Part shown: in pieces, positions 3,929-58,946 of the stretch
Layout: each line of letters opens with the position of its first letter
Position numbering within the stretch: position 1 is the first letter of the stretch
Source of the DNA: Gemmatimonadales bacterium
GTDB lineage: Bacteria; Gemmatimonadota; Gemmatimonadetes; Gemmatimonadales; GWC2-71-9
Reading direction: 5' to 3'
Assembly (NCBI GenBank): GCA_035559715.1
Contig: DATMAW010000161.1
Coordinates: 2,271-66,270, forward strand
Length of the DNA: 64,000 nt
Notes under the pieces: generated by a model
Databases searched by the model: none
Seen by the model: the letters and a program-made list of their open reading frames with translations, nothing else
Told to the model about the DNA's origin: nothing
Made by a program: the position numbers and the translations under genes

Positions 3929-5092
3929 TCACTTCAGCCACCGGCTGAACTCCTCGGTTCCGTTGCCCGCCCGATCCACCGTCACCACCCCCAACCTCAC
4001 TCGTCCATCCTTCCACGCCTCGAGCCGCATGAACCCGCTCGCCGTCCGCGCGAACAGCATTCCCTCGCGGAACGTTGTGGGACTCGTGTGACCGTAGTAC
4101 CCTCCGCCGCTCACCACTTCGAATTGGGTCGCAGCATCAGGGCCGAACACCTGCAGCGAGTGCTCGTGCCCTGCCGCGTACACAAGCGGGCGATTGGGCG
4201 CCAGCGCCGCAGAGAGCGCCAGGCGCATGTGGGCGTAGTGCTCGTGGGCGAGATCCTGGGGAATGGCACCCATCATTCGCACGATCGGGTAGACCGACCC
4301 GATCAGGGGCACGGGCACCCAGAGCCAATCCGCCGCGTGACGCAACGGGAAGATGTGGTCGGTCCACGGGAAGTAGCCCCCGTGGGGGCCCGCCGAGCGC
4401 AGCGGGTGGTGTGCCGCAACGATGACGTGGCGGCCCACCGCGCGCCCCAGTATCGCGTGCAGCGAATCGGCCACTTCCGTTTCGCTGTCTGCCGGACAAC
4501 TCGACGTCGGGTGCCGCGGTTTGGCATTCTGGTGCAACCACCACTGCGTGTCGAGGAAGACGAGCAACAACGCGCTGCCCGCCTCCCGCGCCACGGGACC
4601 GGGGCAGCCGTCCGGAGGTACGAACATCGCGCCGCGATACGGCTGCTGTTCGATAAAGCGCTGTTGGCGCCGCACGGCGTCCCAGCCCTCGGGCGCAAGC
4701 TTGGCCCAATCGTGGTTCCCGGGCAGGAAGTAGCCGGTCGCCCCGGTTTCCCGGAGCACATCCACCTGCGCCATCAAACGACGCTCGGCTTCCGCCCGGT
4801 TCCTGGCGGCTGAGTCCGGCATGCCGGCCGGATAGATGTTGTCGCCAAGAAAGACGACTACTCGCTCACCGCCCGCCTCGCGCAGCGCGCGAGCGAGCGC
4901 GATGAGCACCGGCTCTCCGTTCGGCGCCGGCAGGCCCGCGTCACCGATCAGGAACACCGTGGTCTCGACCTGCCCAGGAAAGGGGACCGGCGCCGGTGCG
5001 GACTGGATCGGCGCAATCGCTGCGCAGGCATCCAGGATCAGCGCAATGGAGACCAAAGGAATCCGCGACACTGCTCCCCTCCGACGCCGCAT
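3929..5092 (-). CDS. exported metallophosphoesterase (purple-acid-phosphatase-like motif set)
   Basis: Motifs LIGDAG, VVFLGDNIYP, LPGNHDW, VAAHHP and AAGHEHSLQ. Start re-called to MRRRRGAVSRIPLVSIALILDACAAI (signal/lipobox-like) at 5092; the 70 upstream codons of track ORF 3929..5302 look spurious. Confidence 0.8.
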   Translation of the reverse strand: MRRRRGAVSRIPLVSIALILDACAAIAPIQSAPAPVPFPGQVETTVFLIGDAGLPAPNGEPVLIALARALREAGGERVVVFLGDNIYPAGMPDSAARNRAEAERRLMAQVDVLRETGATGYFLPGNHDWAKLAPEGWDAVRRQQRFIEQQPYRGAMFVPPDGCPGPVAREAGSALLLVFLDTQWWLHQNAKPRHPTSSCPADSETEVADSLHAILGRAVGRHVIVAAHHPLRSAGPHGGYFPWTDHIFPLRHAADWLWVPVPLIGSVYPIVRMMGAIPQDLAHEHYAHMRLALSAALAPNRPLVYAAGHEHSLQVFGPDAATQFEVVSGGGYYGHTSPTTFREGMLFARTASGFMRLEAWKDGRVRLGVVTVDRAGNGTEEFSRWLK

Positions 5093-6737
5093 GGTGCTAC
5101 TCTTTACGCCGGGCGCGTTCACCGAACTCCCCGTGGCCGACAAACGCATCGCTCCGCAGCTCACTCCGGCAGGCAGGACAGGCCCCGAACAGCTCCCCGC
5201 CGACTTGGCGCGGGATGCGTCACGCCGCCTCGGCATCGTGTCCCTGGTGTACGCGAGCGTGTGGGCGCTGCAAGTCGGTTTCAACAACCTCATCGCGCCC
5301 ATCCTCTCGCCCGATCGCCCACTTGATGACGCGTTTCCCTACCCGGCGAATCCGGTAGCGGCCGTCATCATCGTGGCGTCCATCGCACTCTTCGTATATA
5401 CACGCCGCGCCGCCTGCGACTGCGAAATGTCGCTGAACCTCGGCCTGATCTATGAGGTCTTGGTGGCCGCCGGGATCGGCATCGTAAACCAGTGGACCCC
5501 GAACACGGTAGGCCTCTCGTGGCTCTGCGTGCTGGTGGTCGTCCATGCCGTCATCGTACCGCACACCCGCAACCGCACGCTCGTAGCCGCCGTAGTCGCC
5601 GCCTCAATGGACCTCGTGGGGCTCGGCATCGCCAACGCTCGCGGCGTCGAGATGCCGCCGAGCGCCGCCATCATTTGGTTCGTATTGCCGAACTATCTCT
5701 GTGCCGGTGTGGCCGTGGTGGTGGCGAGCGTCATGACGCAACTGGGCCGTGAAGTACGGACGGCGCGGGAGCTTGGCAGCTACCGGCTGGGAGAACTGCT
5801 GGGTCGGGGCGGCATGGGCGAGGTATACCTGGCGCGCCATCGGTTCCTCGCCCGGCCCGCGGCCATCAAACTGATTCGACTCGATCCGGCCGTGGCACGG
5901 AGCGCCCGTCAGGACGACGTATTGGTCAAGCGGTTCCGTCGGGAGGCAGAAGCCGCGGCGAGCTTGCATTCGCCCCACACGATCGGGCTGTACGATTTCG
6001 GCCTGACCGACGACGGAACGCTGTACTACGTCATGGAGTTGCTGAATGGGCTGGACCTCGAGACGATGGTCGAGCGATTCGGCCCCCAGCCGGCCACCCG
6101 GGTGGTGTACTTCTTGAGGCAAGCCTGCCACTCGTTGGCGGAAGCGCACGCCGTCGGGCTGATTCATCGCGACATCAAGCCCGCCAATCTGTTCGCCTGT
6201 CGCTTCGGCCTCCAGACGGATTTCATCAAGGTGCTCGACTTCGGCCTCGTGAAGTTGATGCGCGGGCCTGCCCCTGACGAGAGCCTCGCCACCGCACCCG
6301 GAGAAGCCATGGGCACACCCGCCTACATGGCGCCGGAAGTCGCGGTGGGCGAGCGGGATCTCGATCACCGCGTGGACATCTACGCATTGGGATGTGTGGG
6401 ATACTGGCTGCTCACCGGACGCACCGTGTTCGAGGCCGACACGCCTGTCAAGATGATGCTCGAACACGTGCGAACGCCGCCGGCGCCGCCCTCCGCGCGA
6501 TCCGAGCTTCCCATCCCGCCCGATCTCGACGCCCTAATCCTGGCCTGCCTCGCCAAGCGTCGAGAGGATCGTCCCGCCGACGCTCTCGAACTGGCGCGCA
6601 GGCTCGACGGGTGCGACGTGGGAGAGCCATGGACCGAGGAGCGGGCACGGACCTGGTGGGAAACCCACGCGCCCGAGGCCGGCGTGCCGCGGACCTCCCG
6701 AGCCTGGGAAGAGTCGCAGGTCCTCGCCGTCCATTGA
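5091..6737 (+). CDS. polytopic membrane Ser/Thr protein kinase (N-terminal ~6-TM domain, C-terminal Hanks kinase), paralog 1
   Basis: Kinase motifs GRGGMGEVYLARH, AIK, HRDIKPANLF, DFGLVK, GTPAYMAPE. They are preceded by ~270 aa with about 6 hydrophobic helices. Start chosen by alignment to the paralog at 43832..45481 (548 vs 549 aa); the exact start is uncertain because it abuts the divergent gene start at 5092. Confidence 0.85.
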   Translation: MVLLFTPGAFTELPVADKRIAPQLTPAGRTGPEQLPADLARDASRRLGIVSLVYASVWALQVGFNNLIAPILSPDRPLDDAFPYPANPVAAVIIVASIALFVYTRRAACDCEMSLNLGLIYEVLVAAGIGIVNQWTPNTVGLSWLCVLVVVHAVIVPHTRNRTLVAAVVAASMDLVGLGIANARGVEMPPSAAIIWFVLPNYLCAGVAVVVASVMTQLGREVRTARELGSYRLGELLGRGGMGEVYLARHRFLARPAAIKLIRLDPAVARSARQDDVLVKRFRREAEAAASLHSPHTIGLYDFGLTDDGTLYYVMELLNGLDLETMVERFGPQPATRVVYFLRQACHSLAEAHAVGLIHRDIKPANLFACRFGLQTDFIKVLDFGLVKLMRGPAPDESLATAPGEAMGTPAYMAPEVAVGERDLDHRVDIYALGCVGYWLLTGRTVFEADTPVKMMLEHVRTPPAPPSARSELPIPPDLDALILACLAKRREDRPADALELARRLDGCDVGEPWTEERARTWWETHAPEAGVPRTSRAWEESQVLAVH

Positions 6738-6768: not shown

Positions 6769-9015
6769 ATGACCACGCGGCTCGATCGCTCGGCCCGCCG
6801 GGCCGTGCTCACCGCGACCGCCGTGTCCCTGGCGATGATCACGTACCAGATCGCGGCGAAGGCCACGCGCGACGCGCTGTTCCTGTCGAGCTTCGACGTG
6901 GCCACGCTCCCGCGCATGGTAATGACCGCGGCGACGGCGTCTATCGTGCTGGCGGTTGCCGCCGCCCGCTGGATATCCGCGGCCGGCCCGCATCGCGCCG
7001 TTCCGGCGTTGTTCGGCCTGTCGGCCGCGCTGCTGCTCGTGGAGTGGGCCATGGTAGAGCCGTACCGCCGCGCGGCAGCCGTGCTCGTGTATCTCCACAA
7101 CGCCGCGCTCGGCGCGATTCTGATTTCGGGCTTTTGGTCGCTCATCAACGAACGGTTCGATCCCCGCACGGCCAAGCGGGAGGTGAACCGGATCGTGACG
7201 GGCGGGACCATCGGCGGGCTGCTCGGCGGGCTCGTCGCCGAGCGGGCGGGCGCTTGGGGGTCGGCGGAGGGCATGCTGCCCTTCCTTGCCGGAGTTCACG
7301 TCGTCTGTGCCATCCTCCTGCGCGGCGTCGTTGGATCGGCGGTGCGGCCGCCCCGAGCGGTGAGGACCGAGCCCGGCGTCCGGACACGGGGAGCCACGGG
7401 TTTCGCCGTCATCGCACAGACCCCGTACCTCCAGGCCATCATCGCGCTCGTGCTGTTGACAACGGTGGGTGAAGGCATTCTCGACTACGCGTTCAAAGCG
7501 CGCGCGGCAGGGGCAGGCGACGACGAGACGCTGCTGCGTCTTTTCGCCGTGTTCTACAGCGGCGTGGCGGTGTTCTCGATCGCAGTCCAGATGATCGTGG
7601 CGCGGCCGGCGTTCGGGACCCTCGGCATCGCGCGAACGGCCGCGTTGCTCCCCGGGACGGTGGTTGCCGGCGCCGTGGGGGCGCTCGCCGCGCCCGGGCT
7701 GGTCTCGGCGCTCACCGCACGCGGTCTCGAGGCCGTCGTTCGCAATTCGCTCTACCGGCCGGCCTACGAGCTGCTGTTCGCGCCGATCAGGCCCCAGGAG
7801 AAGCGCGCGACCAAGACGATGATTGACGTTGGCGCCGTCCGCATCGGCGATCTCCTCGGCGGAGCCTTCATTCAGCTCGTCCTGCTCGCCGCCCGCGCGG
7901 TCGCCGTTCCCATCCTGCTGGCCGTGGGTGCCGCGCTCGCTGCGGCCGGCGTGCTGCTGTCGTTGCGCCTGCACCGTGCCTACGTCCAGACGCTGGAGCA
8001 AAGCCTGCTCCAGCGAGCGGACCAACTCGATCTCAGCCACGTGCAGGATGCGGCAGTCCGCTCGACATTGCTTTGGAGCATCGGGATTCCCGTGCTCACC
8101 GAGGCCTCTGGGTTCCCCCGCCCGCCCACGAAGGTGAGCGGGGAAGCCGAGGCCCCGATGCCGGCGGCGGCGGCGCCGGCACTCGAGGGCCGGATCTTTG
8201 AGGACGCGGAGTTGCGCCGCTTGCTGGACCTTCGCTCCCGCGTCCCCGACCGCGTCCGGCGCGCGCTCGAGCAGGCGCCGCTCACGCCCGCCACGGGCGC
8301 CGACGCCATCCGACTGTTGGCCTGGGATGTCATGGCCCAGCACGCCGTCACCGCCCTGCGGAACGTGGCCAGCCGAATGACCGGCCAACTGGTGGATCGC
8401 TTGCTCGACCCCGACGAGGAATTCGCCATCCGCCGCCGAATCCCGCTCGTGCTCGCCGCCAGTCCCACGGCCCGCGCGGTGGAGGGATTGCTGCTCGCAC
8501 TGGAAGACCAGCGGTTCGAAGTGCGCTACCGCGCGGGGCGAGCCCTCAACCACCTGCTGGCCACCAATCCCAATCTTCGAGTGGATCGGGACCGCGTGAT
8601 CGCCGCCGTGCTGCGCGAGGTTGCCGTGGACCGCGGCGTGTGGGAGAGCCGCCGCCTGCTCGATCGCCACGAGGATGAGGAATGGTCACCGGTACTAGAC
8701 GAATTGGTGCGCGACCGCGCCAACCGAAGTCTGGAACACGTGTTCACAATGCTGGCGCTGCTCCTGCCGCGTGAGCCCCTCAAGGTGGCGTTCCGCGGCC
8801 TGCACACGAGCGACGCGGTATTGCGGGGGACGGCGCTGGAATATCTCGAAACGGCGCTTCCACCGGCCGTGCGCCGGCAACTGTGGCCCTTTCTGGAAGA
8901 CGATCGGCCGGCGAGCCCGGACAAGCGACCATCGAACGAGATCGTAGCCGATCTGCTGCGATCGCGCCTGTCCATTCAGGTCAACCTGGAGGAGCTGAAA
9001 CGGAGGAGCGGTTAG
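6769..9015 (+). CDS. TLC/Npt-type (ATP/ADP-translocase-like, MFS-like) transporter with C-terminal HEAT-repeat domain
   Basis: The N-terminal ~430 aa is polytopic with TLC-like motifs (MITYQIAAKATRDALFLSSF; GFWSLINERFDPRTAKREVNRIVTGGTIGG). The C-terminal ~300 aa is soluble and helical-repeat (EVRYRAGRALNHLL, LRGTALEYLETALP). It starts 31 nt after the kinase stop. Confidence 0.75.
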   Translation: MTTRLDRSARRAVLTATAVSLAMITYQIAAKATRDALFLSSFDVATLPRMVMTAATASIVLAVAAARWISAAGPHRAVPALFGLSAALLLVEWAMVEPYRRAAAVLVYLHNAALGAILISGFWSLINERFDPRTAKREVNRIVTGGTIGGLLGGLVAERAGAWGSAEGMLPFLAGVHVVCAILLRGVVGSAVRPPRAVRTEPGVRTRGATGFAVIAQTPYLQAIIALVLLTTVGEGILDYAFKARAAGAGDDETLLRLFAVFYSGVAVFSIAVQMIVARPAFGTLGIARTAALLPGTVVAGAVGALAAPGLVSALTARGLEAVVRNSLYRPAYELLFAPIRPQEKRATKTMIDVGAVRIGDLLGGAFIQLVLLAARAVAVPILLAVGAALAAAGVLLSLRLHRAYVQTLEQSLLQRADQLDLSHVQDAAVRSTLLWSIGIPVLTEASGFPRPPTKVSGEAEAPMPAAAAPALEGRIFEDAELRRLLDLRSRVPDRVRRALEQAPLTPATGADAIRLLAWDVMAQHAVTALRNVASRMTGQLVDRLLDPDEEFAIRRRIPLVLAASPTARAVEGLLLALEDQRFEVRYRAGRALNHLLATNPNLRVDRDRVIAAVLREVAVDRGVWESRRLLDRHEDEEWSPVLDELVRDRANRSLEHVFTMLALLLPREPLKVAFRGLHTSDAVLRGTALEYLETALPPAVRRQLWPFLEDDRPASPDKRPSNEIVADLLRSRLSIQVNLEELKRRSG

Positions 9016-43831: not shown

Positions 43832-45481
43832 CTATGACACCGACGCCGGGGCCTGCTCTTCAACGGCTGCGGCTGGTCGCAGCACACCGGCGTCGCACGG
43901 CCCACATTCTTCGGGTGCCGGCAGGTGCGCCTCCCACCAGCGGCGCGCGCGCCCTTCGGTCCACGGCTCGGCGAGCGGCACGGCGTCGAGCCGGCGGATC
44001 ACATCGGTCACGCTCTGCGGGCGGCTCTCGGGCTTCTTCGCCAGACAGGCGAGCACGAGGTCGTCCAGCTCTCGCGGGACGTCGAATTCCGCGAGCTGCG
44101 AGGGTGGGACGGGCGGGTCCTGGATGTGGCGGTACATCATCTTCACGGGCGTATCGGCGTCGAACACGGTGCGACCGGTGAGCAACCAGTAGGCGACGCA
44201 GCCCAGCGAGTAGATGTCCGCTCGCGGGTCCACGGCATCGCCCACGGCCGCCTCCGGCGAGATGTAGGCCGGGGTGCCCGTGGCGATCTGCGGCGCCGTG
44301 AGGCGCGTGTCGCCGCCATTTCCCGTCACGGCCTTCACCAGGCCGAAGTCGAGCACCTTGATGAAGTCCACCATGAGACCCAGCCGGGCCGCGAAGATGT
44401 TGGAGGGTTTGATGTCGCGGTGGACCAGACCGTTCGCGTGCGCCTCGCCCAGGGAAAGGCAGGCCTGGCGTATGAAGTGGACGACGCGCTCGGGCGGCAC
44501 GGGACCGAAGCGCTGCACCAGAGCTTCGAGATTCACGCCGTCCAGCAGCTCCATGGCGTAGTAGAGCGTGCCATCGTCCGCCGTGCCGAAGTCGTACAGC
44601 TCGATCGTGTGTGGGGAGCGAAGGGCGGCGGCGGCGCGGGCCTCGCGCTTGAATCGCTCGACGACCACGCGACCGTCGCGTCCCGCGCGGGAAAGCGCCT
44701 CCGGCCGGATCAGTTTGATTGCGGCGGGACGGGCCAGCAGGCGGTGCTCCGCGCGGTGCACTTCACCCATGCCGCCGGCGCCGAGCACTTCGCCGAGGCG
44801 GTAGCTCCCCAGCTCCCGGGCTGAGCGCACCTGCCGCCCGAGCTGACGGATCAGATGCGCAGGCAGCACGGCGAGCAAAGCGGAGATGTAGCTCGGGACG
44901 AAGGCCTCGAACATCTGCCGGGCGCCCAGCGCCACCTCCGGGCCGCGAATCGCCTTGACGATGCCCCACGCCACGGGATCCATCGTGGCGGCGGCGAGGC
45001 TCGCGACGAGGATCTTCTTCGGCGTGTTGGGAGCGATCGAGGGGTACGCCAGAATGATGATGCAGGTGAACGAGATGCCGCGGAACTCCACCGGCGGCAC
45101 CCACAGCGTGTACAGGCCGGTGAGCAACGCCATGACGACTTCGAAGACGAGCCCGAGGTCAAGCAGCAGCGCGTGGCGGTCCTCGAATGCCCTGGACATC
45201 AGGACCATTCCCAGAGACACCACCACGCCGGCTCCCGCAATCAGTGCGCCGGGCATGGGCCACATCTGTGCGTAGCTCCCCATCAGGTCCGGGCCGAAGC
45301 GCGACAGCGAGAGGTACAGACCGAAGGGGATCAGCCACAGGAAGGCGAACGCGAGGGCCGCCGTGCCGACGCGGCGGCAGGCCTGAAACGCCACGTCTCC
45401 GGGCAGTGAGGCACCTGACCCCGGGGACCGGGCCGGGGTGCGCTCGGCAACGAGGCGGCGGGAGGGGGCGGGCACGGTCAT
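43832..45481 (-). CDS. polytopic membrane Ser/Thr protein kinase (N-terminal ~6-TM domain, C-terminal Hanks kinase), paralog 2
   Basis: Same architecture and clear full-length similarity to 5091..6737 (shared ...QLGRQVRSARELGSYRLGEVLGAGGMGEV...ARPAAIKLIR...HRDIKPSNIF...DFGLVK...GTPAYISPE...DTPVKMM...EPWTEGRARRWWE). Confidence 0.85.
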   Translation of the reverse strand: MTVPAPSRRLVAERTPARSPGSGASLPGDVAFQACRRVGTAALAFAFLWLIPFGLYLSLSRFGPDLMGSYAQMWPMPGALIAGAGVVVSLGMVLMSRAFEDRHALLLDLGLVFEVVMALLTGLYTLWVPPVEFRGISFTCIIILAYPSIAPNTPKKILVASLAAATMDPVAWGIVKAIRGPEVALGARQMFEAFVPSYISALLAVLPAHLIRQLGRQVRSARELGSYRLGEVLGAGGMGEVHRAEHRLLARPAAIKLIRPEALSRAGRDGRVVVERFKREARAAAALRSPHTIELYDFGTADDGTLYYAMELLDGVNLEALVQRFGPVPPERVVHFIRQACLSLGEAHANGLVHRDIKPSNIFAARLGLMVDFIKVLDFGLVKAVTGNGGDTRLTAPQIATGTPAYISPEAAVGDAVDPRADIYSLGCVAYWLLTGRTVFDADTPVKMMYRHIQDPPVPPSQLAEFDVPRELDDLVLACLAKKPESRPQSVTDVIRRLDAVPLAEPWTEGRARRWWEAHLPAPEECGPCDAGVLRPAAAVEEQAPASVS

Positions 45482-45575: not shown

Positions 45576-45626
45576 CTTGCGACCCGAGCGGATGCACTCG
45601 CCTCCGCCATGCCCATGGGCCGAGCC
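45576..45626 (+). repeat. 51-nt intergenic repeat, copy 1 (contains ATG + MPMGRA codons)
   Basis: CTTGCGACCCGAGCGGATGCACTCGCCTCCGCCATGCCCATGGGCCGAGCC. It differs from copy 2 at 2 of 51 positions. Confidence 0.95.
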
Positions 45627-45959
45627 GCCCTGTTCTACGATCGCTTTGGCGAGGAGATCGTCACCGAACTCGTGAACTGGTTCAACGACGTGGATGCCAC
45701 GTACCGCACCGACCTGCGGGAGCTGAACGAACTGAACTTCACTCGGTTCGACGCCAAACTCGAGCAGCGGCTCGCCGAGCTGGCGGCAACTACGCGAGCC
45801 ACTGCCACGCTGACGTCCGTCGTTGCCGAAGAGTGGAGTAACGTGCGGCGGCGGGATGCTCCCGTCCCCCCGCCCGGGAGAGGCCCTATCGGGCGGGCAA
45901 GGACTCCGCGAGGAGGTCGTCCAGTTTGCGGACCTCGGCAGTCGCGCCCAAGCGGCTAA
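45609..45959 (+). CDS. small hypothetical ORF initiated inside repeat copy 1 (possibly truncated or decayed at its 3' half)
   Basis: MPMGRAALFYDRFGEEIVTELVNWFNDVDATYRTDLRELNELNFTRFDAKLEQRLAEL... looks protein-like for ~60 codons. It then becomes low-complexity Arg/Pro and overlaps the 3' end of the convergent TPR gene by ~70 nt. Confidence 0.35.
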   Translation: MPMGRAALFYDRFGEEIVTELVNWFNDVDATYRTDLRELNELNFTRFDAKLEQRLAELAATTRATATLTSVVAEEWSNVRRRDAPVPPPGRGPIGRARTPRGGRPVCGPRQSRPSG

Positions 45960-47823: not shown

Positions 47824-49188
47824 CTAGTCCAGCTGCCCTGATTGGATCAGTCTCCGAAGCCGCTGTCGCGAAACGCCCAAGCGCTGTGCCGCATGACTCC
47901 GGTTGCCCTGGCACTGTTCGAGCATCAGGCGGGCGGCGGTGCGACTGATCTCCCGCAGCGACGCCGGAAACGGCAGGCTGCCACTGGAGGGGATTGGGGC
48001 TGCATCACCTCTAGGTACGAGCTCGGACGGCCGCACCTCCCCTGGCGGGGACAGCAGCAGGGCGCGTTCGACGGCGTTCTTCAGCTCGCGAATATTCCCG
48101 GGCCAGTGGTAACTGCGGAGCGCCTGGCGGACCTCGGGCGTCAGCGACGGGACCGGGAGGCCGTGCTGTCGCGCCAGCGACTCCAGTAGGGCCGCGCTGA
48201 TGAGGATCGTATCCTCTCCCCGTTCCCGCAGTGGCGGCAACTCGAGCACGATGACGCTAAGCCGGAAGTACAGGTCGCTGCGGAAAGTCCCGTGCTTCAC
48301 GGCGTGTTCGAGGTTCTCGTTCGTAGCGGCGAGAATGCGCACGTCCACGGTCCGGCTCTTCGTGCCGCCTACGCGCCGAATGCTCTTGTCGTCCAGGACC
48401 CTGAGCAGCTTGGCCTGCGTTTCGAGGGGGAGGGTCCCCACCTCGTCGAGGAACAGCGTACCTCCGTCGGCCACTTCAAACAGCCCCGGCTTGGCGACGT
48501 GGGCGTCGGTGAACGCGCCACGTTCGTGCCCGAACAACTCGGACTCCACCAGGCGTTCCGGCAGCGCGGAGCAGTTGACCGCGACGAACGGGGCCGCGCG
48601 CCGGGGGCCGCCGTCGTGAATGGCGCGAGCGAGTAACTCCTTTCCAGTCCCCGTTTCTCCGACAATGAGCGCCGTTGCGTCGCGCCGCTGCAAGATCATT
48701 GAAGCGCGGGCGAGGGTGGCCTTCAATGCGTCGCTGTCCCCGACCAGAGCGGAGAAGGCCTCGTCCTTCGCCTTCAGTTGCAGTTGCTCCGCGCGCCGCA
48801 TGTGATGGCGGTGGCGATCAACCGCGGCCCCGAGGGCATTGCGCAGGAGCTCGAGGTCTTCGGGGAGGGCGAAGTAGTCAGCGGCACCGCGCTGCACCAG
48901 TGCCGTGGCGGTGCGGCGGCTGGGGTCGGCTCCAACGACGAGAATAGGACATGACAGGCCTTCCCTCTGCGCATCGAGCCAGTTGCGGGCCTCTTGCTCT
49001 GCGCCACCCGCTGCGAGGACAACAGCGGCAACCTCCGGAGTCGCTATGCAGGCATCGTTCGCGTCCAGGAATGAGACTACCGCTCCGCCTCCTGGGACTT
49101 GCCCCCAGATGTCGGCGAAGGCCCTGGAAAGCTCGACAACAAGTACGCGAGTGACGCCCAACAGTCCTCCGTTTTCCTCTCGGTGCAC
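47824..49188 (-). CDS. sigma-54-dependent transcriptional activator (bacterial enhancer-binding protein) with degenerate receiver-like N-terminal domain
   Basis: AAA+ core GETGTGKELLARAIH, GAFTDA (GAFTGA loop variant), ESELFGHERGAFT, RSDLYFRLSV, and C-terminal Fis-type HTH NRSHAAQRLGVSRQRLRRLI. The N-terminal ~125 aa has a receiver-like layout but lacks the usual DD/D/K residues (VLVVELSRA; VVLAAGG; YFALP). Confidence 0.9.
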   Translation of the reverse strand: MHREENGGLLGVTRVLVVELSRAFADIWGQVPGGGAVVSFLDANDACIATPEVAAVVLAAGGAEQEARNWLDAQREGLSCPILVVGADPSRRTATALVQRGAADYFALPEDLELLRNALGAAVDRHRHHMRRAEQLQLKAKDEAFSALVGDSDALKATLARASMILQRRDATALIVGETGTGKELLARAIHDGGPRRAAPFVAVNCSALPERLVESELFGHERGAFTDAHVAKPGLFEVADGGTLFLDEVGTLPLETQAKLLRVLDDKSIRRVGGTKSRTVDVRILAATNENLEHAVKHGTFRSDLYFRLSVIVLELPPLRERGEDTILISAALLESLARQHGLPVPSLTPEVRQALRSYHWPGNIRELKNAVERALLLSPPGEVRPSELVPRGDAAPIPSSGSLPFPASLREISRTAARLMLEQCQGNRSHAAQRLGVSRQRLRRLIQSGQLD

Positions 49189-49298: not shown

Positions 49299-49314
49299 TG
49301 GCGCGCACGTTGCC
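49299..49314 (+). promoter_or_regulatory. sigma-54 (-24/-12) promoter upstream of the HD-GYP-like gene
   Basis: TGGCGC-gcacg-TTGCC against consensus TGGCAC-N5-TTGCW: the GG and GC dinucleotides have exact spacing and 14 of the 16 positions are consensus-compatible. It sits 58 nt upstream of ATG 49372 (RBS GGAG at 49361), in the AT-richer divergent region next to the EBP gene. Confidence 0.6.
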
Positions 49315-49371: not shown

Positions 49372-50112
49372 ATGGAACGAATCGTATCGGCGACGGCCCG
49401 CAGGCGGCTCCCGCCCCCGTTTTTCCCGGCTCGGACCAGGGCCCGAAGCAGGAGCAGCCGAATCGCCGAGAGACAGCGCTGGCGCTCTGTTATAGGCGTC
49501 GCGAGGCAGCTCGATGTGTCGGATCTCTGCACGGCGGGGCACTCCATCCGAGTGGGGGGCCTTGCCCACGCCATGGCCCGTCAATTGGGCCTGTCACGGC
49601 GGGAAGTCCGCCTGATTCGGATCGGGGGGCTGCTGCACGACATCGGCAAGGTGGGGGTGCCCAAGGCGTTGCTTTCCAAACCGGAGCCGCTCACGGACGA
49701 TGAGTACCGTCGAGTCATGGCTCACACCACGCTCGGCGCCCGCATGCTCGCGCCGCTCGGCACGCGATATCCGACGATCCTGGGGATCGTTCGGTGGCAC
49801 CACGAGCGCGTTGACGGGCGCGGTCTGCCGGATGGGTTGCGCGGCGACGCCATTCCCCTCGGCGCGCGCATCGTGGCCGTGGCGGACGCGTTCGACGCGA
49901 TGACGAGCGCGAGGCCGTATCGCCGCTTCCCGCTCTCGGCGGCAGAGGCCATCGTCGAGCTTGAGCACGGCGCGGGCACTCAATTCGACGCCACCTGTGT
50001 GCGGGCGCTCCGCTGTGCGTGGTCCACCGCCCTCGCCGACATCGCAAGCACGATGATGCGGTCCCCGACAGCCCCGGGAGGGCTGGTTGGCGCCCTGGCA
50101 CCTCTGACCTAG
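49372..50112 (+). CDS. stand-alone HD-GYP-like domain protein (probable c-di-GMP phosphodiesterase; GYP replaced by GLP)
   Basis: HSIRVGGLAHAMARQLGL, LLHDIGKVGVP, HHERVDGRGLPDGL, AVADAFDAMTSARPYR. Confidence 0.85.
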   Translation: MERIVSATARRRLPPPFFPARTRARSRSSRIAERQRWRSVIGVARQLDVSDLCTAGHSIRVGGLAHAMARQLGLSRREVRLIRIGGLLHDIGKVGVPKALLSKPEPLTDDEYRRVMAHTTLGARMLAPLGTRYPTILGIVRWHHERVDGRGLPDGLRGDAIPLGARIVAVADAFDAMTSARPYRRFPLSAAEAIVELEHGAGTQFDATCVRALRCAWSTALADIASTMMRSPTAPGGLVGALAPLT

Positions 50113-50393
50113 ATCCGGGTACGCTGGGAGGGACTACAAGCGGCTGGCCACAGAGCGGAGAATCGAGGTCTCCAAACAAGGGCTAAGCTCTTCGACCGAC
50201 CCGACGAGGTACGCAATTCCGAGAAGGGGAGCCTCGCCGGCCACCCCACCGCGGCGTTCGACGACGGCCGCATCTTCGACCTGACGCCCGGCACGGTGTT
50301 CTACATCCCCCGGAGCCGCACGACAGTCGGGTGGTGGGCAACGAGCCCTATGTCTCTCTGCATCTCCTGGGGGCCGATCGGTACGCGAAGTAG
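50113..50393 (+). pseudogene. possible frameshifted cupin-domain remnant
   Basis: One frame reads ...SEKGSLAGHPTAAFDDGRIFDLTPGTVFYIP. After a C5 run (50307-50311) a second frame continues PEPHDSRVVGNEPYVSLHLLGADRYAK*. Joined, this resembles cupin motif 2 (PG....IP...PH...N.g.EP). No intact ORF is present. Confidence 0.3.
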
Positions 50394-50479: not shown

Positions 50480-52798
50480 ATGCATCAACGCGCATTGGCA
50501 TTCTTTCGCCGATTGATTCGTCATCGGACGGCTGTGCTCGGCGCCACGGGCGTCGTCGTCCTGGTGGCGGTCCTGGGCGCCCGCCGTGTGCGCGTGGACT
50601 TCAGCGTGGAGCAGTTCTTCCTCCCATCCGGGCCGGAGCGGGAGGCGTTCGACGCCTATCGCCACACCTTCCCCCGCGAGGACGCACAGGTCACCCTCTT
50701 CTGGCAGGACGCCCGCCCGCCCGGCATCGTCCTGTACCGCGACATGGAGCGCGCCGCCCGGTTGTTCGAGGAGGCGGGCCTCGAGGACGTGCGGTGGATC
50801 GGCAACGCGCTGGTGGCCGAGTCGGAAGGCGACGCCGGGCTGTCGCTGGTACCGTTGCTGGACTCGATCACCACCGACAACGTGGTAGCCGCGCGCCTCG
50901 CGCGCCATCGCGACGATCCCCTGCTCCGAGGTTTCCTGTGGGACGCTGGCCAGCACGTGTTCGCCCTGCACGGCTACCTGGCTCCCGAGCAGAACCACGA
51001 CGCCGGCCGGCGCGCGGTGGAAGAGACCCTCACCGAGCGGCTCGCCGCGCTCCGCGTGCAGTCCGCGCATCTGGTGCTGGGCGGCCTGCCCATCGCCCGA
51101 TCCCGCGCGCCCAAGCTGCTGGCCCGCGACCTCAACGTGCTGGCCGCCGCGGCCGTGGCGATCTCCGGAGTTGTCCTGTTGTACTTCCTGCGCCATCCCC
51201 TCCAGGTGGTGCTGCTGCTGGCCTCCGTGGCGCCAGCGTATCTCTGCACCGTGGGCCTCATGGGCGTTCTCGGGAAGCCCATCAGCGTACTGACCAGCTT
51301 CATCCCGGTGGTGGTCCTGGTGGTGGGGATGAGCGACGCCGTCCACCTCGTGGCCGAGTTCCGCCGGCGCCTGGCCGCGGCCGAGCCTGCGGCGGACGCC
51401 GTGACGCACACGTTCGCCACGCTCGCGGTGCCGTGCTTCTACACATCGCTCACCACCGCCATTGGCTTTGGGACCCTCGCCGGAACCGGCATCGGCATGG
51501 TCATGGATTTCGGCCTGTTCACCGCGCTGGCGATCCTCCTCACCTACTCGTTCACGTCCACGCTGCTTCCGGTCTTGCTCTCTTTCGTACGCCCCCGCGC
51601 GTTCGACGATTGCGGGCTGTCCGCTCCCTGGATCCGCCGTCTCGTGGCCGCCGGGGTGGCGCAGCTTCGCCGCCGGCGTCGCACGGTGGCACTGAGCCTC
51701 GGGAGCCTGAGCGTGGCGGGACTCATTCTCGGCCTTGGGCTCCGGGTCAACACCCTGCTGATAGACGACATCAACCGGCGGGCGGCGATCATGCGAGACA
51801 TCCGCTGGATCGAGTCGCGGGGATTCGGCCTGTTCCAGCTCGTGATCCACGTCAAGGCGGGCGGTGCTGAGCCGCTGCACCGCCCCGAAGCCCTGGCCTG
51901 GATGAACGGCGTTCGGGACTTCATGCGGAGCGACCCACTGGTGTTGAGCGCGTTCGCTCCAGCGGATCTGATTACGCCGCTCGCGCACGCGTTCGACGAT
52001 ACCGGCGGCAACGAGGGCGTGATCACCTCCACCGAAGAGGCAGCCCAGTTGTTGTTGCTGGTCGAAATGGCGGACCGCGGGGTGGTGCGCTCCCTCTATG
52101 CGCAGCCGGAGGGCGAGGCCCAGGTCATTGCCACCGTGCGAGACGCGGGGTCGGTCGAACTGCAACCGTTCCTCGATCGCGTGGACGCGTATCTCAACGC
52201 GCACCCCTTCCCGGATGGGACGGCCGGACCCACCGGGACGGTGATCATGATCCAGGCGTTCACCGCCAGGCTGCTCCGCAACCTGGTCCCGAGCGTGGCG
52301 CTGGCGATGATCCTGATCTGTGCCTGCGTCATGTGGATGTTCCGTTCGGTTCGACTCGGCCTGCTGGCGATCCTGCCCAACCTGATCCCGCTGGCCGTGT
52401 TACTCGGCGCCATGCGGCTCGGTGCGTTCGACCTCAAGCCGTCCACCATCCTAGTCTTCTCGGTGGCGTTTGGGATCGCGGTGGACAACTCCATTCATCT
52501 ACTGGGGCGCTTCCTCAGCGCCACGACACAGACGCCGGCTGTGGAGGCGGCGCTGGAGGAGGCGCTGCAAGCCGCGGGCCCCGCGCTGGTGATGAACACC
52601 GTGGTCGTGGTGGCGGGATTCGCGGTGCTGCTGGCGTCCAGTTTCCAGGTGCTCTTGCTCATCGGCCTCATGACGGTGGTGAGCGCGGTGGCCGCGCTGG
52701 CCGCCAACCTGTTCGTCTTTCCGGCGATCGTGGCCGTGGCATGGAGGCGCGCCCCGGCACGCGGGGCCCTGCCGCGCCGACTGGAGCGAGTCATATGA
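50480..52798 (+). CDS. RND-superfamily exporter of the MMPL/COG1033 (HpnN-like) type
   Basis: 772 aa with two 6-TM bundles, each preceded by a periplasmic domain. N-terminus FFRRLIRHRTAVLGATGVVVLVAVLGARRVRVDFSVEQFF; SSD-like regions (VVVLVVGMSDAVHLV...; VFSVAFGIAVDNSIHLL). Confidence 0.85.
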   Translation: MHQRALAFFRRLIRHRTAVLGATGVVVLVAVLGARRVRVDFSVEQFFLPSGPEREAFDAYRHTFPREDAQVTLFWQDARPPGIVLYRDMERAARLFEEAGLEDVRWIGNALVAESEGDAGLSLVPLLDSITTDNVVAARLARHRDDPLLRGFLWDAGQHVFALHGYLAPEQNHDAGRRAVEETLTERLAALRVQSAHLVLGGLPIARSRAPKLLARDLNVLAAAAVAISGVVLLYFLRHPLQVVLLLASVAPAYLCTVGLMGVLGKPISVLTSFIPVVVLVVGMSDAVHLVAEFRRRLAAAEPAADAVTHTFATLAVPCFYTSLTTAIGFGTLAGTGIGMVMDFGLFTALAILLTYSFTSTLLPVLLSFVRPRAFDDCGLSAPWIRRLVAAGVAQLRRRRRTVALSLGSLSVAGLILGLGLRVNTLLIDDINRRAAIMRDIRWIESRGFGLFQLVIHVKAGGAEPLHRPEALAWMNGVRDFMRSDPLVLSAFAPADLITPLAHAFDDTGGNEGVITSTEEAAQLLLLVEMADRGVVRSLYAQPEGEAQVIATVRDAGSVELQPFLDRVDAYLNAHPFPDGTAGPTGTVIMIQAFTARLLRNLVPSVALAMILICACVMWMFRSVRLGLLAILPNLIPLAVLLGAMRLGAFDLKPSTILVFSVAFGIAVDNSIHLLGRFLSATTQTPAVEAALEEALQAAGPALVMNTVVVVAGFAVLLASSFQVLLLIGLMTVVSAVAALAANLFVFPAIVAVAWRRAPARGALPRRLERVI

Positions 52799-53604
52799 AC
52801 GCGTCGAGAACGGTGAAGGCCCTGAGACTCGGCCGCGCTGCCGCATTCCTCGTGCTGGGCGCGCCGGTCCAACGCCTCGGGGCGCAAGAGGCGGCATCCG
52901 AATCGGGGCGGCAAATCGCCGAACGCGCGATTGCCCAGCTCAAGGGCTACGGTGACGTGGCGGCCGAGATCACGATCGTGCTCAAAGCCCGCCGGGGCGA
53001 TGCCAGAACCTGGACCGTGCGGTTGCTGAGTCTGGAGCAGCCCGGCGTCGAGCGAACCATCGTGGTCTTCGAGCGACCGCGGGACGTGCGGGGAACGGCG
53101 CTGCTCACGGCCACGCGGCCCGGGCGCGAGAACGAGCAGTGGCTCTATCTGCCGGCGGTGGGCAGGGTGAAACGCATCGCGTCGCAGGGCCGCTCCAGCT
53201 CGTTCATGGGGACGGAGTTCTCGTATGAAGACGTCGCGCCCGACGACGCGGCCCGATACCGCTACGGCGAGACGCGCGCCGACACGCTGGACGGCGTCCC
53301 GGTGACTGCGGTGGAGCGGTTTCCGCAGGATCCCGGATCCGCCTACGGTCGTCAGCTCCTGTGGGTGGACGGCGACGATCGGCCGATCCGCATTGACTAC
53401 TTCGACCGCGCCGGCTCGCAGGTCAAGACACTCCATTACCGCGGCTATCGGTTGCGGGCAGGTCGCTTCTGGCGCGCCGACGAGATGGAGATGGTGAACC
53501 ACAAGACGCTGGCCAGCACCACGCTGCTGTGGACCGCGTATCGGTTTGGCGCCGGGCTTCGCGCGAGCGATTTCGAGCCCGACGCCCTGGGTCGAACGCC
53601 ATGA
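52795..53604 (+). CDS. LolA-like outer-membrane lipoprotein-sorting-type protein
   Basis: The start ATG overlaps the RND stop (ATGA). Signal peptide present. TIVVFERPRDVRGTALLT....NEQWLYLPAVGRVKRIASQGRSSSFMGTEFSYEDV is the hallmark of the LolA_like family. Confidence 0.75.
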   Translation: MNASRTVKALRLGRAAAFLVLGAPVQRLGAQEAASESGRQIAERAIAQLKGYGDVAAEITIVLKARRGDARTWTVRLLSLEQPGVERTIVVFERPRDVRGTALLTATRPGRENEQWLYLPAVGRVKRIASQGRSSSFMGTEFSYEDVAPDDAARYRYGETRADTLDGVPVTAVERFPQDPGSAYGRQLLWVDGDDRPIRIDYFDRAGSQVKTLHYRGYRLRAGRFWRADEMEMVNHKTLASTTLLWTAYRFGAGLRASDFEPDALGRTP

Positions 53605-54827
53605 AACCTCGCAGGCTTCGGCGAGCGCATCCACTCGGTCGCTGCGCATCCCCCGTGTTTCCGCCGCCTGCTAGGGCTGTCCTGGCGTTCGGGTGCGCGC
53701 TGGCCTGGTTGCTGCCTGCGGCGGCCTCCGCGCAATGGCGCGGCGACATTGGCATCACGGAGCGGCTCTATGCGTCGCCGGGGGCCGGGGTCGGCCCGGC
53801 GCGCCATGAACCGGTCATCGTCGCCGGCGCCGCGGGCCGCACACGGTTGGGAGCGGCGCGCCTCGCGTTCGGGGCGTCGGTGCGGGCCGGTGATGAAGAT
53901 TATGGTGTTCTCGCCGACGTGCATGAGTTGAGCGCGGGGCTGACGCGCGGCCGGTGGTCCTTGCGAGCCGGCGTCTCCCAAGTGTCCTGGGGCGTGCTGG
54001 AGTCCGCGCAGCTGGTGGACGTGCTCAACCAGCGGGCAATGGTCCCCGGTGTCAGCGGCGGACTCAAGCTGGGCCAGCCTATGGTCAACCTGGGAGTCCG
54101 CGGGATCTGGGGGACGGGGACGGTGGACTTCTATCTGTTGCCGTGGTTTCGTGCCCGGCCGTTCGTGGGACGGGCCGCGCGCGTGTGGTCCGGTCAGATG
54201 GTGAGCGCAGACGAGCCGGCATTCGGTCCCGCGGACGGAAGGCATCGCATGGACTGGGCGGTGCGCGGCACGCGGGGCTTCGGCGAGTGGGACGTGGGCC
54301 TGAGTCTCTTTCGGGGCACGGATCGCGAGCCGGCATTCCAATCCCTCATCGGCGAGGAAGGCTTTGGCCGATTACTGCCGCGCTACGACGTGGTCCGGCG
54401 GGTGGGCGTGGACATCCAGTGGACTCACGGCCGCTGGCTGGGCAAACTGGAAGCCGCGAGCGGCAACCCGTCGTCAGGTCGCTACGTGGCCGTTGGTACG
54501 GGACTCGAATTCGCGCCGGCGGACTACGTGAGCGCGTTCGTGGAATACGTGCACGACAGCCGCGGAGCCAGGGCGCCCACGTCGTTGGAGCGTGACGTGT
54601 GTGTCGGCGGCCGCCTGCTCTACCGTGACGGACATGTGGGTCTCCGCGGCTCGGTGGACCGTGTCACCGGCAACGCTTCGGTGGGGTTCGAGACGGCGCG
54701 CCGGCTCTCCAATTCGACCGCGGTGACGCTCCAGGCCATGGCGTTCCTGGGCGACGCGGCCAGCGAGCCGCCGGTGGCGCTACGCCACGACAGCAACGTC
54801 GCACTCGGCGTGCATCGCTACTTCTGA
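53601..54827 (+). CDS. putative outer-membrane beta-barrel protein (hypothetical)
   Basis: The start ATG overlaps the previous stop (ATGA). Signal peptide (...LLPAAASAQ), alternating beta-strand-like pattern and aromatic C-terminus ...LGVHRYF. Confidence 0.6.
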   Translation: MKPRRLRRAHPLGRCASPVFPPPARAVLAFGCALAWLLPAAASAQWRGDIGITERLYASPGAGVGPARHEPVIVAGAAGRTRLGAARLAFGASVRAGDEDYGVLADVHELSAGLTRGRWSLRAGVSQVSWGVLESAQLVDVLNQRAMVPGVSGGLKLGQPMVNLGVRGIWGTGTVDFYLLPWFRARPFVGRAARVWSGQMVSADEPAFGPADGRHRMDWAVRGTRGFGEWDVGLSLFRGTDREPAFQSLIGEEGFGRLLPRYDVVRRVGVDIQWTHGRWLGKLEAASGNPSSGRYVAVGTGLEFAPADYVSAFVEYVHDSRGARAPTSLERDVCVGGRLLYRDGHVGLRGSVDRVTGNASVGFETARRLSNSTAVTLQAMAFLGDAASEPPVALRHDSNVALGVHRYF

Positions 54828-54982
54828 GCCGGGTCCTCCGCGCGGAACGCGGGACTAGCCGGTGGCTCGCCGGGCGGCTCAATTTGGTGCCGTTCGGTCG
54901 GCGGGTCCGCTCAAGAGTGAGATGAACGACGCGACGATTCGTGTGGTGGATCGCGCCGATCTACTCCGTGGCAACATTCAGT

Positions 54983-55033
54983 CTTGCGACCCGAGCGGAT
55001 GCACTCGCCTCCGCGATGCCTATGGGCCGAGCC
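54983..55033 (+). repeat. 51-nt intergenic repeat, copy 2
   Basis: CTTGCGACCCGAGCGGATGCACTCGCCTCCGCGATGCCTATGGGCCGAGCC, located between two convergent gene ends. The ORF it initiates (MPMGRANQPPRAS...) looks non-coding. Confidence 0.95.
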
Positions 55034-55256
55034 AACCAACCACCGCGAGCATCCGCAACCGCCGCTCCGCACGTCGCCGGTCACGACTTTGCGCGCGCCG
55101 GTCCGCGTTCATCCGCCGGTCGGATCGTGCTGACCCCTGGCCCCCGGAGCCCCCAGACGTCGAATCAGATGTCATGACTGCGCGTGGCTCCTTTGAAGGG
55201 AAAGGGTCTACTGGCAATGGCCACCCGGTCGCCCACCGCAGCACCGCAAGGTGACC

Positions 55257-58751: not shown

Positions 58752-58865
58752 GAAGGTGAGAGCGGCTCAGGGTCGGCGAGGGGGCGCCGCGGCGTGACCG
58801 AGTGGGTGCCCTCGCCGGAGCGATGCCGGGACGCGAACCCGGTGGCCCGGTTGGCGATCGTAGTT

Positions 58866-58916
58866 GGCTCGGCCCATAGGCATCGCGCGGGCGAGTGCAT
58901 CCGCTCCGGTCGCCAA
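58866..58916 (-). repeat. 51-nt intergenic repeat, copy 3 (inverted orientation, more diverged)
   Basis: The minus strand reads TTGGCGACCGGAGCGGATGCACTCGCCCGCGCGATGCCTATGGGCCGAGCC (6 of 51 mismatches to copy 2). The following codons, MPMGRA-NYDR..., echo copy 1 (MPMGRAALFYDR...). It lies 30 nt downstream of the cyclase-family gene stop. Confidence 0.9.
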
Positions 58917-58946
58917 CTCCTTGAAGAGCATCGCGCAGGCGAGCTC

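Follow-up and report, generated by a model that had tools for sequence, protein, structure and literature searches.

What is a 51-nt sequence that recurs within a short stretch of a Gemmatimonadales contig, each time ending in an ATG and the codons for MPMGRA? The original prediction offered two answers: a conserved 5' control region attached to the start of a small gene family in partial decay, or a scar left by recombination or insertion. We addressed the question in a 64-kb window (the whole stretch of 64,000 nucleotides that was analysed), which has a G+C content of 64-70% throughout.

Copies, edges and core of the repeat

The 51-mer lies at three sites over 13 kb (45576-45626 and 54983-55033 on the forward strand, 58866-58916 on the reverse strand), accompanied by more diverged relatives:

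45576-45626, forward strand: copy 1, 33 nt followed by ATG CCC ATG GGC CGA GCC and fused to a family-gene fragment.
54983-55036, forward strand: copy 2, an orphan stub of 51 nt plus AAC, in a 429-nt spacer between two convergent outer-membrane-protein genes.
58850-58917, reverse strand: extended unit of copy 3, made up of the 51 nt, AAC, CTACGATCGCC (derived from the family gene) and AAC.
58794-58827, forward strand: copy 4, an older partial copy, about 75-80% similar, covering element positions about 6-38 and facing copy 3.
53615-53643, reverse strand: a diverged core-only copy, GCGAC-CGAGTGGATGCGCTCGCC (nhmmer E = 0.043), at the junction of a LolA-like and an outer-membrane barrel gene.
58791-58914, no strand assigned: a long imperfect hairpin formed by copies 4 and 3, lying in the gap where the YdeI/OmdA-like and cyclase genes converge.

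A degenerate 51-mer pattern matched copies 1 and 2 on the forward strand, with 0 matches in 100 shuffles and a chance expectation of 0. An independent repeat search recovered copies 1 and 2 as a direct pair at 96% identity, and copies 2 and 3 as inverted arms (54986-55036 and 58863-58913) at 94%. Since an nhmmer profile built from the three copies also detected every one of them at E = 1e-16 to 1e-17, the prediction of three copies, the third inverted, is borne out. Pairwise identity among copies 1-3 is 86-96% over the 51 nt. Copies 1 and 2 differ by 2 mismatches, as had been counted (positions 33 and 39, both substitutions silent when read in the frame of the ATG); copies 2 and 3 differ at 5 positions (1, 3, 10, 28 and 29) rather than the 6 first given, and copies 1 and 3 at 7.

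All three copies had been placed in non-coding gaps. This holds for copies 2 and 3, which like copy 4 lie in spacers between annotated genes; the gaps at copies 2 and 3 carry no annotation, and the gene numbers of the source metagenome-assembled genome (MAG) run consecutively there. Copy 1 is located upstream of a pseudogene, and its final 18 nt are inside the annotated 116-aa ORF VNL18_10410. The flanks are indeed unrelated: local alignments over 100-150 nt on each side of the copies were not significant (p 0.06-0.96), and a longer shared homology around copies 2 and 3 was rejected (p = 0.06-0.6). The sole exception is a 10-nt block, CTACGATCGC, immediately after both copy 1 and copy 3; the 'YDR' echo noted between their peptides stems from this block.

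The 5' edge is common to the three copies to within 1-3 nt. At the other end, AAC directly follows the 51-mer in both copies 2 and 3, the copy-3 unit reaches 58850, ending in ...CTACGATCGCCAAC, and copy 2 resembles copy 3 minus 13 nt between two GCCAAC repeats. The ends of the copy-3 unit form a short inverted repeat of 10-12 nt, GTTGGCGA(C/T)CG. Terminal inverted repeats, which the original prediction had found lacking, are therefore present on this unit only; in copies 1 and 2 the ends are not seen as a pair, the right end coinciding with native gene sequence in copy 1 and being missing in copy 2. No duplicated flank that would indicate a target-site duplication was found at any copy.

Within the non-coding segment of the 51-mer lies a quasi-palindromic core of about 25 nt, GCGACC-GAGYGGATSCRCTCGCC, with pairing at 6 of the 8 positions of CGAGCGGATGCACTCG. 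Copy 4 scored E = 0.07 in nhmmer with the three-copy profile and 2e-4 with a core model that was itself built partly from copy 4. The core-only copy at 53615-53643 falls either in the first codons of the gene at that junction or in a 50-nt spacer, depending on the start codon, as two alternative starts (408 or 390 aa) are on record. The five window sites all fall within 45.5-58.9 kb, and none was found in the other 50 kb; the description 'low-copy and local' rests on this one 64-kb window.

The hairpin of copies 4 and 3, about 120 nt long, is more stable as a DNA fold than expected (-41.2 kcal/mol, z = -3.37; none of 200 shuffles reached this stability), and the RNA fold of the whole spacer that holds them has z = -2.1. 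Such an inverted doublet with a hairpin occurs at this one locus only; the partner of copy 2 is a 12-nt vestige. On their own, the copies fold no more stably than shuffled sequences do (z -0.1 to -0.8). The covariation check proposed at the outset, run on the copies, returned 0 compensatory pairs in the consensus structure and 4 predicted pairs broken by copy 3, in agreement with the earlier statement that single copies have no convincing conserved hairpin and that the substitutions in copy 3 break pairs.

A discrete unit with unrelated flanks, two of its three copies between convergent genes, an imperfect palindromic core, an inverted doublet with a significant hairpin, a terminal inverted repeat on the copy-3 unit and copies of differing age would all suit a lineage-specific REP/REPIN- or MITE-like non-autonomous element, moved in trans by a transposase outside the window and abutting the copy-1 pseudogene by chance. 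We consider such an element rather unlikely, and it is nevertheless the main rival to the patch copying proposed below. The lack of a significant fold in single copies argues against it, as do the arms of the doublet, which are about 75-80% alike compared with 94-98% for REPINs (PMC3337134).

The gene fragment behind copy 1

Two overlapping features follow copy 1:

45609-45959, forward strand: the annotated 116-aa ORF VNL18_10410, judged to be a chance extension of a gene fragment.
45630-45782, forward strand: an internal fragment of a 'MPVTAKLS...' family gene (LFYDRFGEEIV...KLEQRLAEL), recognised by homology.

The ORF is identical to the NCBI protein VNL18_10410 of a Gemmatimonadales MAG. 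A protein database search returned 3203 matches, with 42-50% of the query covered in most of the matches listed. The only family-like part is codons 9-58, and residues ~9-58 are about 85-88% identical to the nearest family members and contain the conserved N-terminal domain (...FY.R.GE.....LV.WFN.VD.TYR.DLRELNELNF.RFDAKLEQR). Members of the family are proteins of 100-200 residues that start with MPVTA[KR]LS; a conserved domain of ~55 residues is followed by coiled-coil repeats, which vary, and by a hydrophobic (membrane) helix at the C-terminus. The family is very large and uncharacterised; its named matches come from Gemmatimonadales/Gemmatimonadota MAGs, no Pfam or NCBIfam model scored above threshold for VNL18_10410 or the family, and no family loci were found among viral contigs.

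A single fragment of the family domain is present in the window, as determined by tblastn. VNL18_10410 is without the native N-terminus, the C-terminal coiled coil and the membrane helix, and its G+C by codon position changes from 0.66/0.33/0.86 in codons 1-58 to 0.71/0.78/0.61 in the remainder. We judge it to be a truncated, pseudogene-like gene remnant and no intact gene; as a correction to the annotation, it is best handled as a gene remnant. Only copy 1 had been said to continue into a plausible ORF. The ORFs after copies 2 and 3 indeed have no coding composition and nothing in common beyond MPMGRAN, but the ORF of copy 1 is itself a decayed fragment.

Among the 120 best homologues, the start is MPVTA[KR]LS in at least 105 and MPMGRA in none; within this set, MPMGRA(A) is peculiar to VNL18_10410. 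Comparison of the upstream DNA of six distinct family loci gave the same picture. Three of them (L002, L003 and L012) have a common upstream motif, and the leader of the L021 type is different and longer. The 33 non-coding nucleotides of the element have no significant similarity to the leaders of L002, L003 and L012 (p 0.2-1.0). A candidate native-leader match of TTGGCGACC to TTGGCGGCC in L003 was rejected, as its alignment scores were not above those of shuffles, and so was a derivation of the MPMGRA codons (18-21 coding bases) from the native start (p 0.23-0.84). The fragment is ~88-90% identical in nucleotides to L002 and L003 from CTGTTCTAC onward; this high identity begins at CTGTTCTACGATCGC and vanishes abruptly upstream. 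On these comparisons, the normal 5' region of the family is something other than the 51-mer. The first of the original alternatives is thus correct in that the ORF belongs to a family and is decayed, and incorrect in taking the 51-mer for its 5' region.

The tail of the copy-3 unit connects the repeat with the gene. Its 11 nt, CTACGATCGCC, are identical to native family coding sequence of L002 (p = 0.001), and copy 3 would therefore have been copied from the element-gene junction, and not have arrived as an independent, free-standing insertion.

The explanation that we tentatively place first is that the 51-mer is a non-functional low-copy repeat, in which the start of a broken gene has been copied into two other gaps. 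With the same reserve, we read the 51-mer as a non-coding segment with a quasi-palindromic core, joined to the opening codons of a paralogue, now broken, of a gene for a small coiled-coil membrane protein. The ATG and the MPMGRA codons would then be a by-product and no gene-family start. The patch may have been copied from the element-gene junction into spacers already holding a core-like hairpin, either by ectopic gene conversion or by template switching while DNA was being repaired or replicated. A core hairpin already in place is invoked as the seed because a common 5' edge would be unusual under random decay. Patch copying would explain this common edge, which lies where the core homology starts, together with the ragged 3' edges at short repeats. 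It would also explain the local clustering, the gene-derived bases in copy 3, the pairing of old copy 4 with young copy 3, and the non-clean replacement of alleles between strains (see below). If there is any activity, it would plausibly reside in the hairpins alone, acting as 3'-end or terminator-like structures between convergent genes. The recombination or insertion scar of the original prediction therefore comes closer to the evidence, which consists of discrete patches with unrelated flanks, family-gene bases in one of them, and a stretch that varies in structure among strains.

Some observations count against patch copying. The spread of similarities, ~75-80% for copy 4 and 86-96% for copies 1-3, also fits a slowly proliferating repeat family; the 10-12-nt terminal inverted repeats of the copy-3 unit and the resemblance of copies 3 and 4 to a REPIN doublet point the same way.

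Genomic setting and close strains

Copy 1 has a membrane Ser/Thr kinase and a TPR protein around it, copy 2 two converging outer-membrane barrel proteins, and copy 3 a YdeI/OmdA-like protein and a cyclase, also converging. Between the copies are genes for a sigma-54 activator, an HD-domain protein, an MMPL transporter and a LolA-like protein. No transposase, integrase or Y1/RAYT was found among ~48 ORFs scanned with Pfam, which comprise most long ORFs of the 64-kb window; the absence of a transposase had been noted from the start. The window has no tRNA genes.

Searches beyond the window gave chance matches at most. Exact-pattern scans, tolerating no mismatch at specified positions, found one chance match in 185,579 GTDB species genomes (in Alteromonas) and one in JGI metagenomes, in an unrelated CDS (peptide ADALADAMP) without synteny. 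Plasmid records held no match to the repeat. Six-frame translations of the three copies had no score against proteins at E up to 10 among at most 8000 candidates, a limit that probably makes the comparison uninformative. For the REP/MITE-like element, these scans, the clustering of all sites within 13 kb and the absence of both a transposase or RAYT in 64 kb and a target-site duplication are all unfavourable, and the family-gene bases carried by copy 3 are not expected from canonical transposition.

The direct and inverted pairs of copies bracket segments of 9.4, 3.8 and 13.2 kb, which raises the possibility that a larger element left them behind, either as attachment sites flanking an integrated island (copies 1 and 2, direct and 9.4 kb apart) or as residual ends of an insertion sequence behind the local rearrangements. 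Consistent with this, the gene order usual around the Omp85-like gene, with a divergent Ser/Thr kinase as in L006 and L008, is disrupted in the window, where the kinase is found next to copy 1. Yet the kinase is 42-53% identical to either paralogue, making its orthology ambiguous, and the relatives compared are distant (56-70% protein identity). Moreover, no integrase, transposase or tRNA was found in or near the segments; of the ORFs scanned in the 9.4-kb and 3.8-kb segments, several of them without a Pfam match, none showed a recombinase domain, and the genes are ordinary chromosomal ones (TPR, sigma-54 activator, HD, MMPL, LolA-like, barrels). Together with the lack of plasmid matches, this makes a larger element improbable. 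A transposon bounded by copies 2 and 3 was rejected because the 843-aa and 432-aa ORFs are outer-membrane barrel proteins. An attC-like site was rejected by inspection, the GTT/AAC ends being in the wrong order and an integron integrase absent. An inversion with copies 1 and 3 as its ends might in principle account for the broken kinase/Omp85-like synteny, but indistinguishable kinase paralogues and distant relatives put this beyond proof.

A functional cis-element could also be imagined: a 5' leader or promoter-proximal region for small ORFs, a small RNA, or an operator for a dimeric protein at the 16-bp quasi-palindrome CGAGYGGATSCACTCG. This 16-mer is over-represented: 11 sites in the window match it with 2 or fewer mismatches, where 0.6 would be expected. 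A gene for a sigma-54 activator is located between the copies, and the 51 nt are kept at 86-96% identity with only synonymous substitutions between copies 1 and 2. Against this, Rfam gave no match at the element, neither at the gathering score nor at E up to 5, and the predicted pairs are broken by copy 3 with none compensated. No sigma-70-type promoter was found at the copies, and a sigma-54 promoter or activator site was rejected since copy 1 has the wrong spacing for it, copies 2 and 3 lack it, and matches to the consensus show no enrichment. The ORFs that follow copies 2 and 3 do not look coding and diverge past MPMGRAN, and homologous family genes elsewhere are without this leader. Adding the losses seen in a sister strain (the ATG frame at copy 1, copy 3, and copy 2 in a deletion variant), we regard a cis-acting function as having only a slim chance of being correct.

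That sister strain is represented in Logan contigs, which include the same strain as the window (L009 and L010, 99.97-100% identical) and a sister strain B (L005 and L011, 98.7-99.5%). Contigs L009 (99.97%) and L011 both terminate precisely at window position 45576, and L010, a 100% match to the window, stops 30 nt inside copy 2. Contig ends at the copies are the expected branch of a k = 31 de Bruijn graph at a repeat, so that the sequence must be repeated in both samples, an independent confirmation of the repeat. The source is a MAG and short-read graph assemblies break exactly at the element, as might occur if contigs had been joined by error via a shared k-mer. Nonetheless, independent Logan contigs, assembled from two sequencing runs, read into the element and recover one side each of copy 1 (L009 and L011) and copy 2 (L010). 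The sequence on either side of copy 3 is collinear with strain-B contig L005, and the copies differ from each other like real paralogous copies. An assembly artefact is thus the least probable of the explanations considered, and very much so.

The strain-B contig breaks at the element even though neither copy 2 nor copy 3 is present in the strain-B contigs examined, a hint of another copy elsewhere or of a mixture of strains in that sample.

Copy 1 itself is identical in strain B (51/51 in L011), and the sequence after it is altered. An extra C between the element and the fragment, a 1-nt insertion causing a +1 frameshift, puts the MPMGRA ATG out of frame, and the invariant Tyr of DATYR is changed to Asp. 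Because of the frameshift, the Tyr change and the missing ends, we take the fragment to be a pseudogene and the MPMGRA codons to be accidental. In strain B the fragment reads from a second ATG inside the element, giving MHSPPPCPWAEPP-LFYDR... (MHSPPPC start). The same fragment thus has two starts, MPMGRA in the window and MHSPPPC in the sister strain. One could envisage a small hairpin element in Gemmatimonadota, so far undescribed and either mobile or able to copy itself, that takes along a few adjacent bases and whose outward ATGs in two frames give neighbouring gene fragments new starts; we see this as a long shot.

Strain B differs more strongly at copy 3. In L005, 118 nt at 58806-58923 are replaced by 24 nt, within flanks that are 99.1-99.5% identical. 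Most of CCGAGTGGATCCACTCGG, a perfect 18-bp palindrome, comes from these 24 nt, whose sequence agrees with positions 1-27 of the element at 20 of 27 sites. The copy-3 unit is absent from L005, yet removing it from the window allele does not give the strain-B allele, whose sequence at this spacer is no subsequence of the window's. The alleles are related by replacement between diverged relatives of the same core, and not by a clean insertion or deletion. For the REP/MITE-like element this result cuts both ways: the core is a perfect palindrome in strain B and the locus is polymorphic between 99%-identical strains, but removal of the unit does not recreate the other allele. Patch copying would account for a non-clean replacement.

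Copy 2 lies within a 3.6-kb segment that is missing from a strain-B deletion variant. The same stretch has a strain-specific 189-nt indel, bounded by TCTCC and holding another gene remnant, a frameshifted cupin-like gene tail. These two further strain-specific indels and the remnant fit a region in flux. The 13-kb stretch is thus one that is decaying and being reshuffled between very close strains, and the replacement of one hairpin by another would be a handy natural marker of turnover if this proves to be a true repeat family genome-wide.

Comparison with known repeat systems

REP sequences and REPINs, the latter being REP doublets that form hairpins, are mobilised by RAYT transposases (Bertels & Rainey, PMC3337134, PMC3116915). 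Similar to these, the repeat described here is short and extragenic with an imperfect palindromic core, has two of its three long copies between convergent genes, includes one locus where two inverted copies fold into a ~120-nt hairpin, and varies in content at that locus between close strains. Unlike REP families, which have tens to hundreds of dispersed members, it has 3 long and 2-3 short copies in 13 kb of the 64-kb window; no RAYT was found in that window, and the repeated unit includes a start codon and bases of a protein-coding gene. In a limited search of the REP literature, we found no mention of REP-like elements or their transposases in Gemmatimonadota.

The resemblance to MITEs lies in small size (51-68 nt), lack of coding capacity, discrete ends and, on one copy, short terminal inverted repeats. 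The differences are that a target-site duplication is absent, inverted ends are clear in copy 3 only, an empty site was not recovered in the sister strain, and no parent insertion sequence for the 51-mer is known.

Pseudogene fragments and short patches of ectopic gene conversion or repair are known parts of bacterial genome decay. The locus shares with them a gene piece truncated at both ends, orphan stubs with first codons, other remnants and indels nearby, and boundaries at short homologies (GCCAAC around the 13 nt missing from copy 2, TCTCC around the 189-nt indel). Three copies with the same 5' edge to within 1-3 nt are unusual for random decay. The 'MPVTAKLS...' family is matched by residues 9-58 of the ORF behind copy 1 and differs in that the 51-mer is not its usual leader. 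Overall, the 51-mer repeat is of an ordinary kind, decayed gene-start stubs with a REP-like flavour, and its importance would be greater if a whole-genome count showed a true repeat family.

Rearranged genes around the repeat copies

The window encodes a pair of membrane Ser/Thr kinases that are paralogues of about 50% identity and also show up as an inverted similarity of 337 nt:

4836-6737 (+), membrane Ser/Thr kinase
43832-45481 (-), membrane Ser/Thr kinase

In relatives (among loci L006, L007 and L008), the gene for the 843-aa Omp85-like protein has a kinase gene lying divergently beside it, and kinase, TLC-like and MFS genes then follow. In the window they are dispersed (4.8-10.5 kb, 43.8 kb and 55.3 kb), so the ancestral cluster has come apart.

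Further changes were found in the sister strain. Its contig L005 carries a 3.6-kb deletion junction at 6964-7005, where window position 55181 is joined to 51559 and positions 51560-55180 are missing. Gone with them are the 3' half of the MMPL transporter gene, both the LolA-like and the outer-membrane barrel gene, and copy 2 of the 51-nt repeat. A chimeric contig may be the source of this junction; since L005 and L011, another contig of this strain, overlap by exactly 30 nt (window 51518-51547), the sister-strain sample probably contains both the deleted and the undeleted form.

L011 itself is missing 189 nt of the window (50174-50362), a segment with a TCTCC direct repeat at both bounds. Together with the next 30 nt, it encodes a small cupin-like protein's tail, interrupted by a frameshift (...FDLTPGTVFYIP / PHDSRVVGNEPYVSLHLLGADRYAK, then a stop), with a below-threshold match to Cupin_2 (E = 0.0065). 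This tail is a further gene remnant in the same neighbourhood as the repeat copies.

Partial, chance and regulatory-like matches

The outer-membrane barrel gene has two recorded starts, at window 53601 (408 aa, Logan gene calls) versus 53655 (390 aa, NCBI), and the diverged copy of the repeat's core (53615-53643, -) sits exactly between the two start codons. Because of this position, it falls either in a spacer of 50 nt or within the first codons of the gene, which would then encode a signal peptide whose n-region is unusually long.

The sole metagenome match to the 23-base pattern, at 2010-2035 of L004, was rejected as a true repeat copy: it lies within an unrelated coding sequence (peptide ADALADAMP) and shares no neighbours with the window. 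Exact patterns of 21-23 bases can thus turn up by chance in high-G+C coding DNA.

One sigma-54-like site falls between a sigma-54 activator gene (47824-49188, -) and an HD-domain gene (49372-50112, +), and such matches were not enriched across the whole window:

49299-49314 (+), -24/-12 match TGGCGCGCACGTTGCC, 2 mismatches

The MPVTA[KR]LS family and its upstream motif

The small-protein family whose fragment is fused to copy 1 is very large (3203 matches, 100-200 residues). An almost invariant MPVTA[KR]LS start is followed by a conserved domain (about 55 residues), by coiled-coil repeats of the type 'LDAKLEQRLAEL...', which vary, and by a C-terminal hydrophobic helix. Neither Pfam nor NCBIfam gave a match at threshold, the single hint being a faint one to LA_3696_Nterm (E = 0.018).

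Window 45630-45782, family fragment
L002 3001-3468, family gene
L003 3001-3507, family gene
L012 1501-1914, family gene
L021 948-1391, family gene

A GMC-oxidoreductase gene adjoins the family gene in L002, L003 and L012, as does a gluconate-2-dehydrogenase-subunit-3-like gene in the first two. These three loci also have in common the motif TTT[CG]-N19-20-TA[CG]GTTGT, about 35-70 nt 5' of the family start codon; the leader of L021-type members differs.

L002 2925-2965, upstream motif
L003 2915-2955, upstream motif
L012 about 1415-1455, upstream motif

If a true promoter, the motif would be informative on promoter usage in Gemmatimonadota; in sequence and spacing it resembles the Bacteroidetes -33/-7 promoter type.
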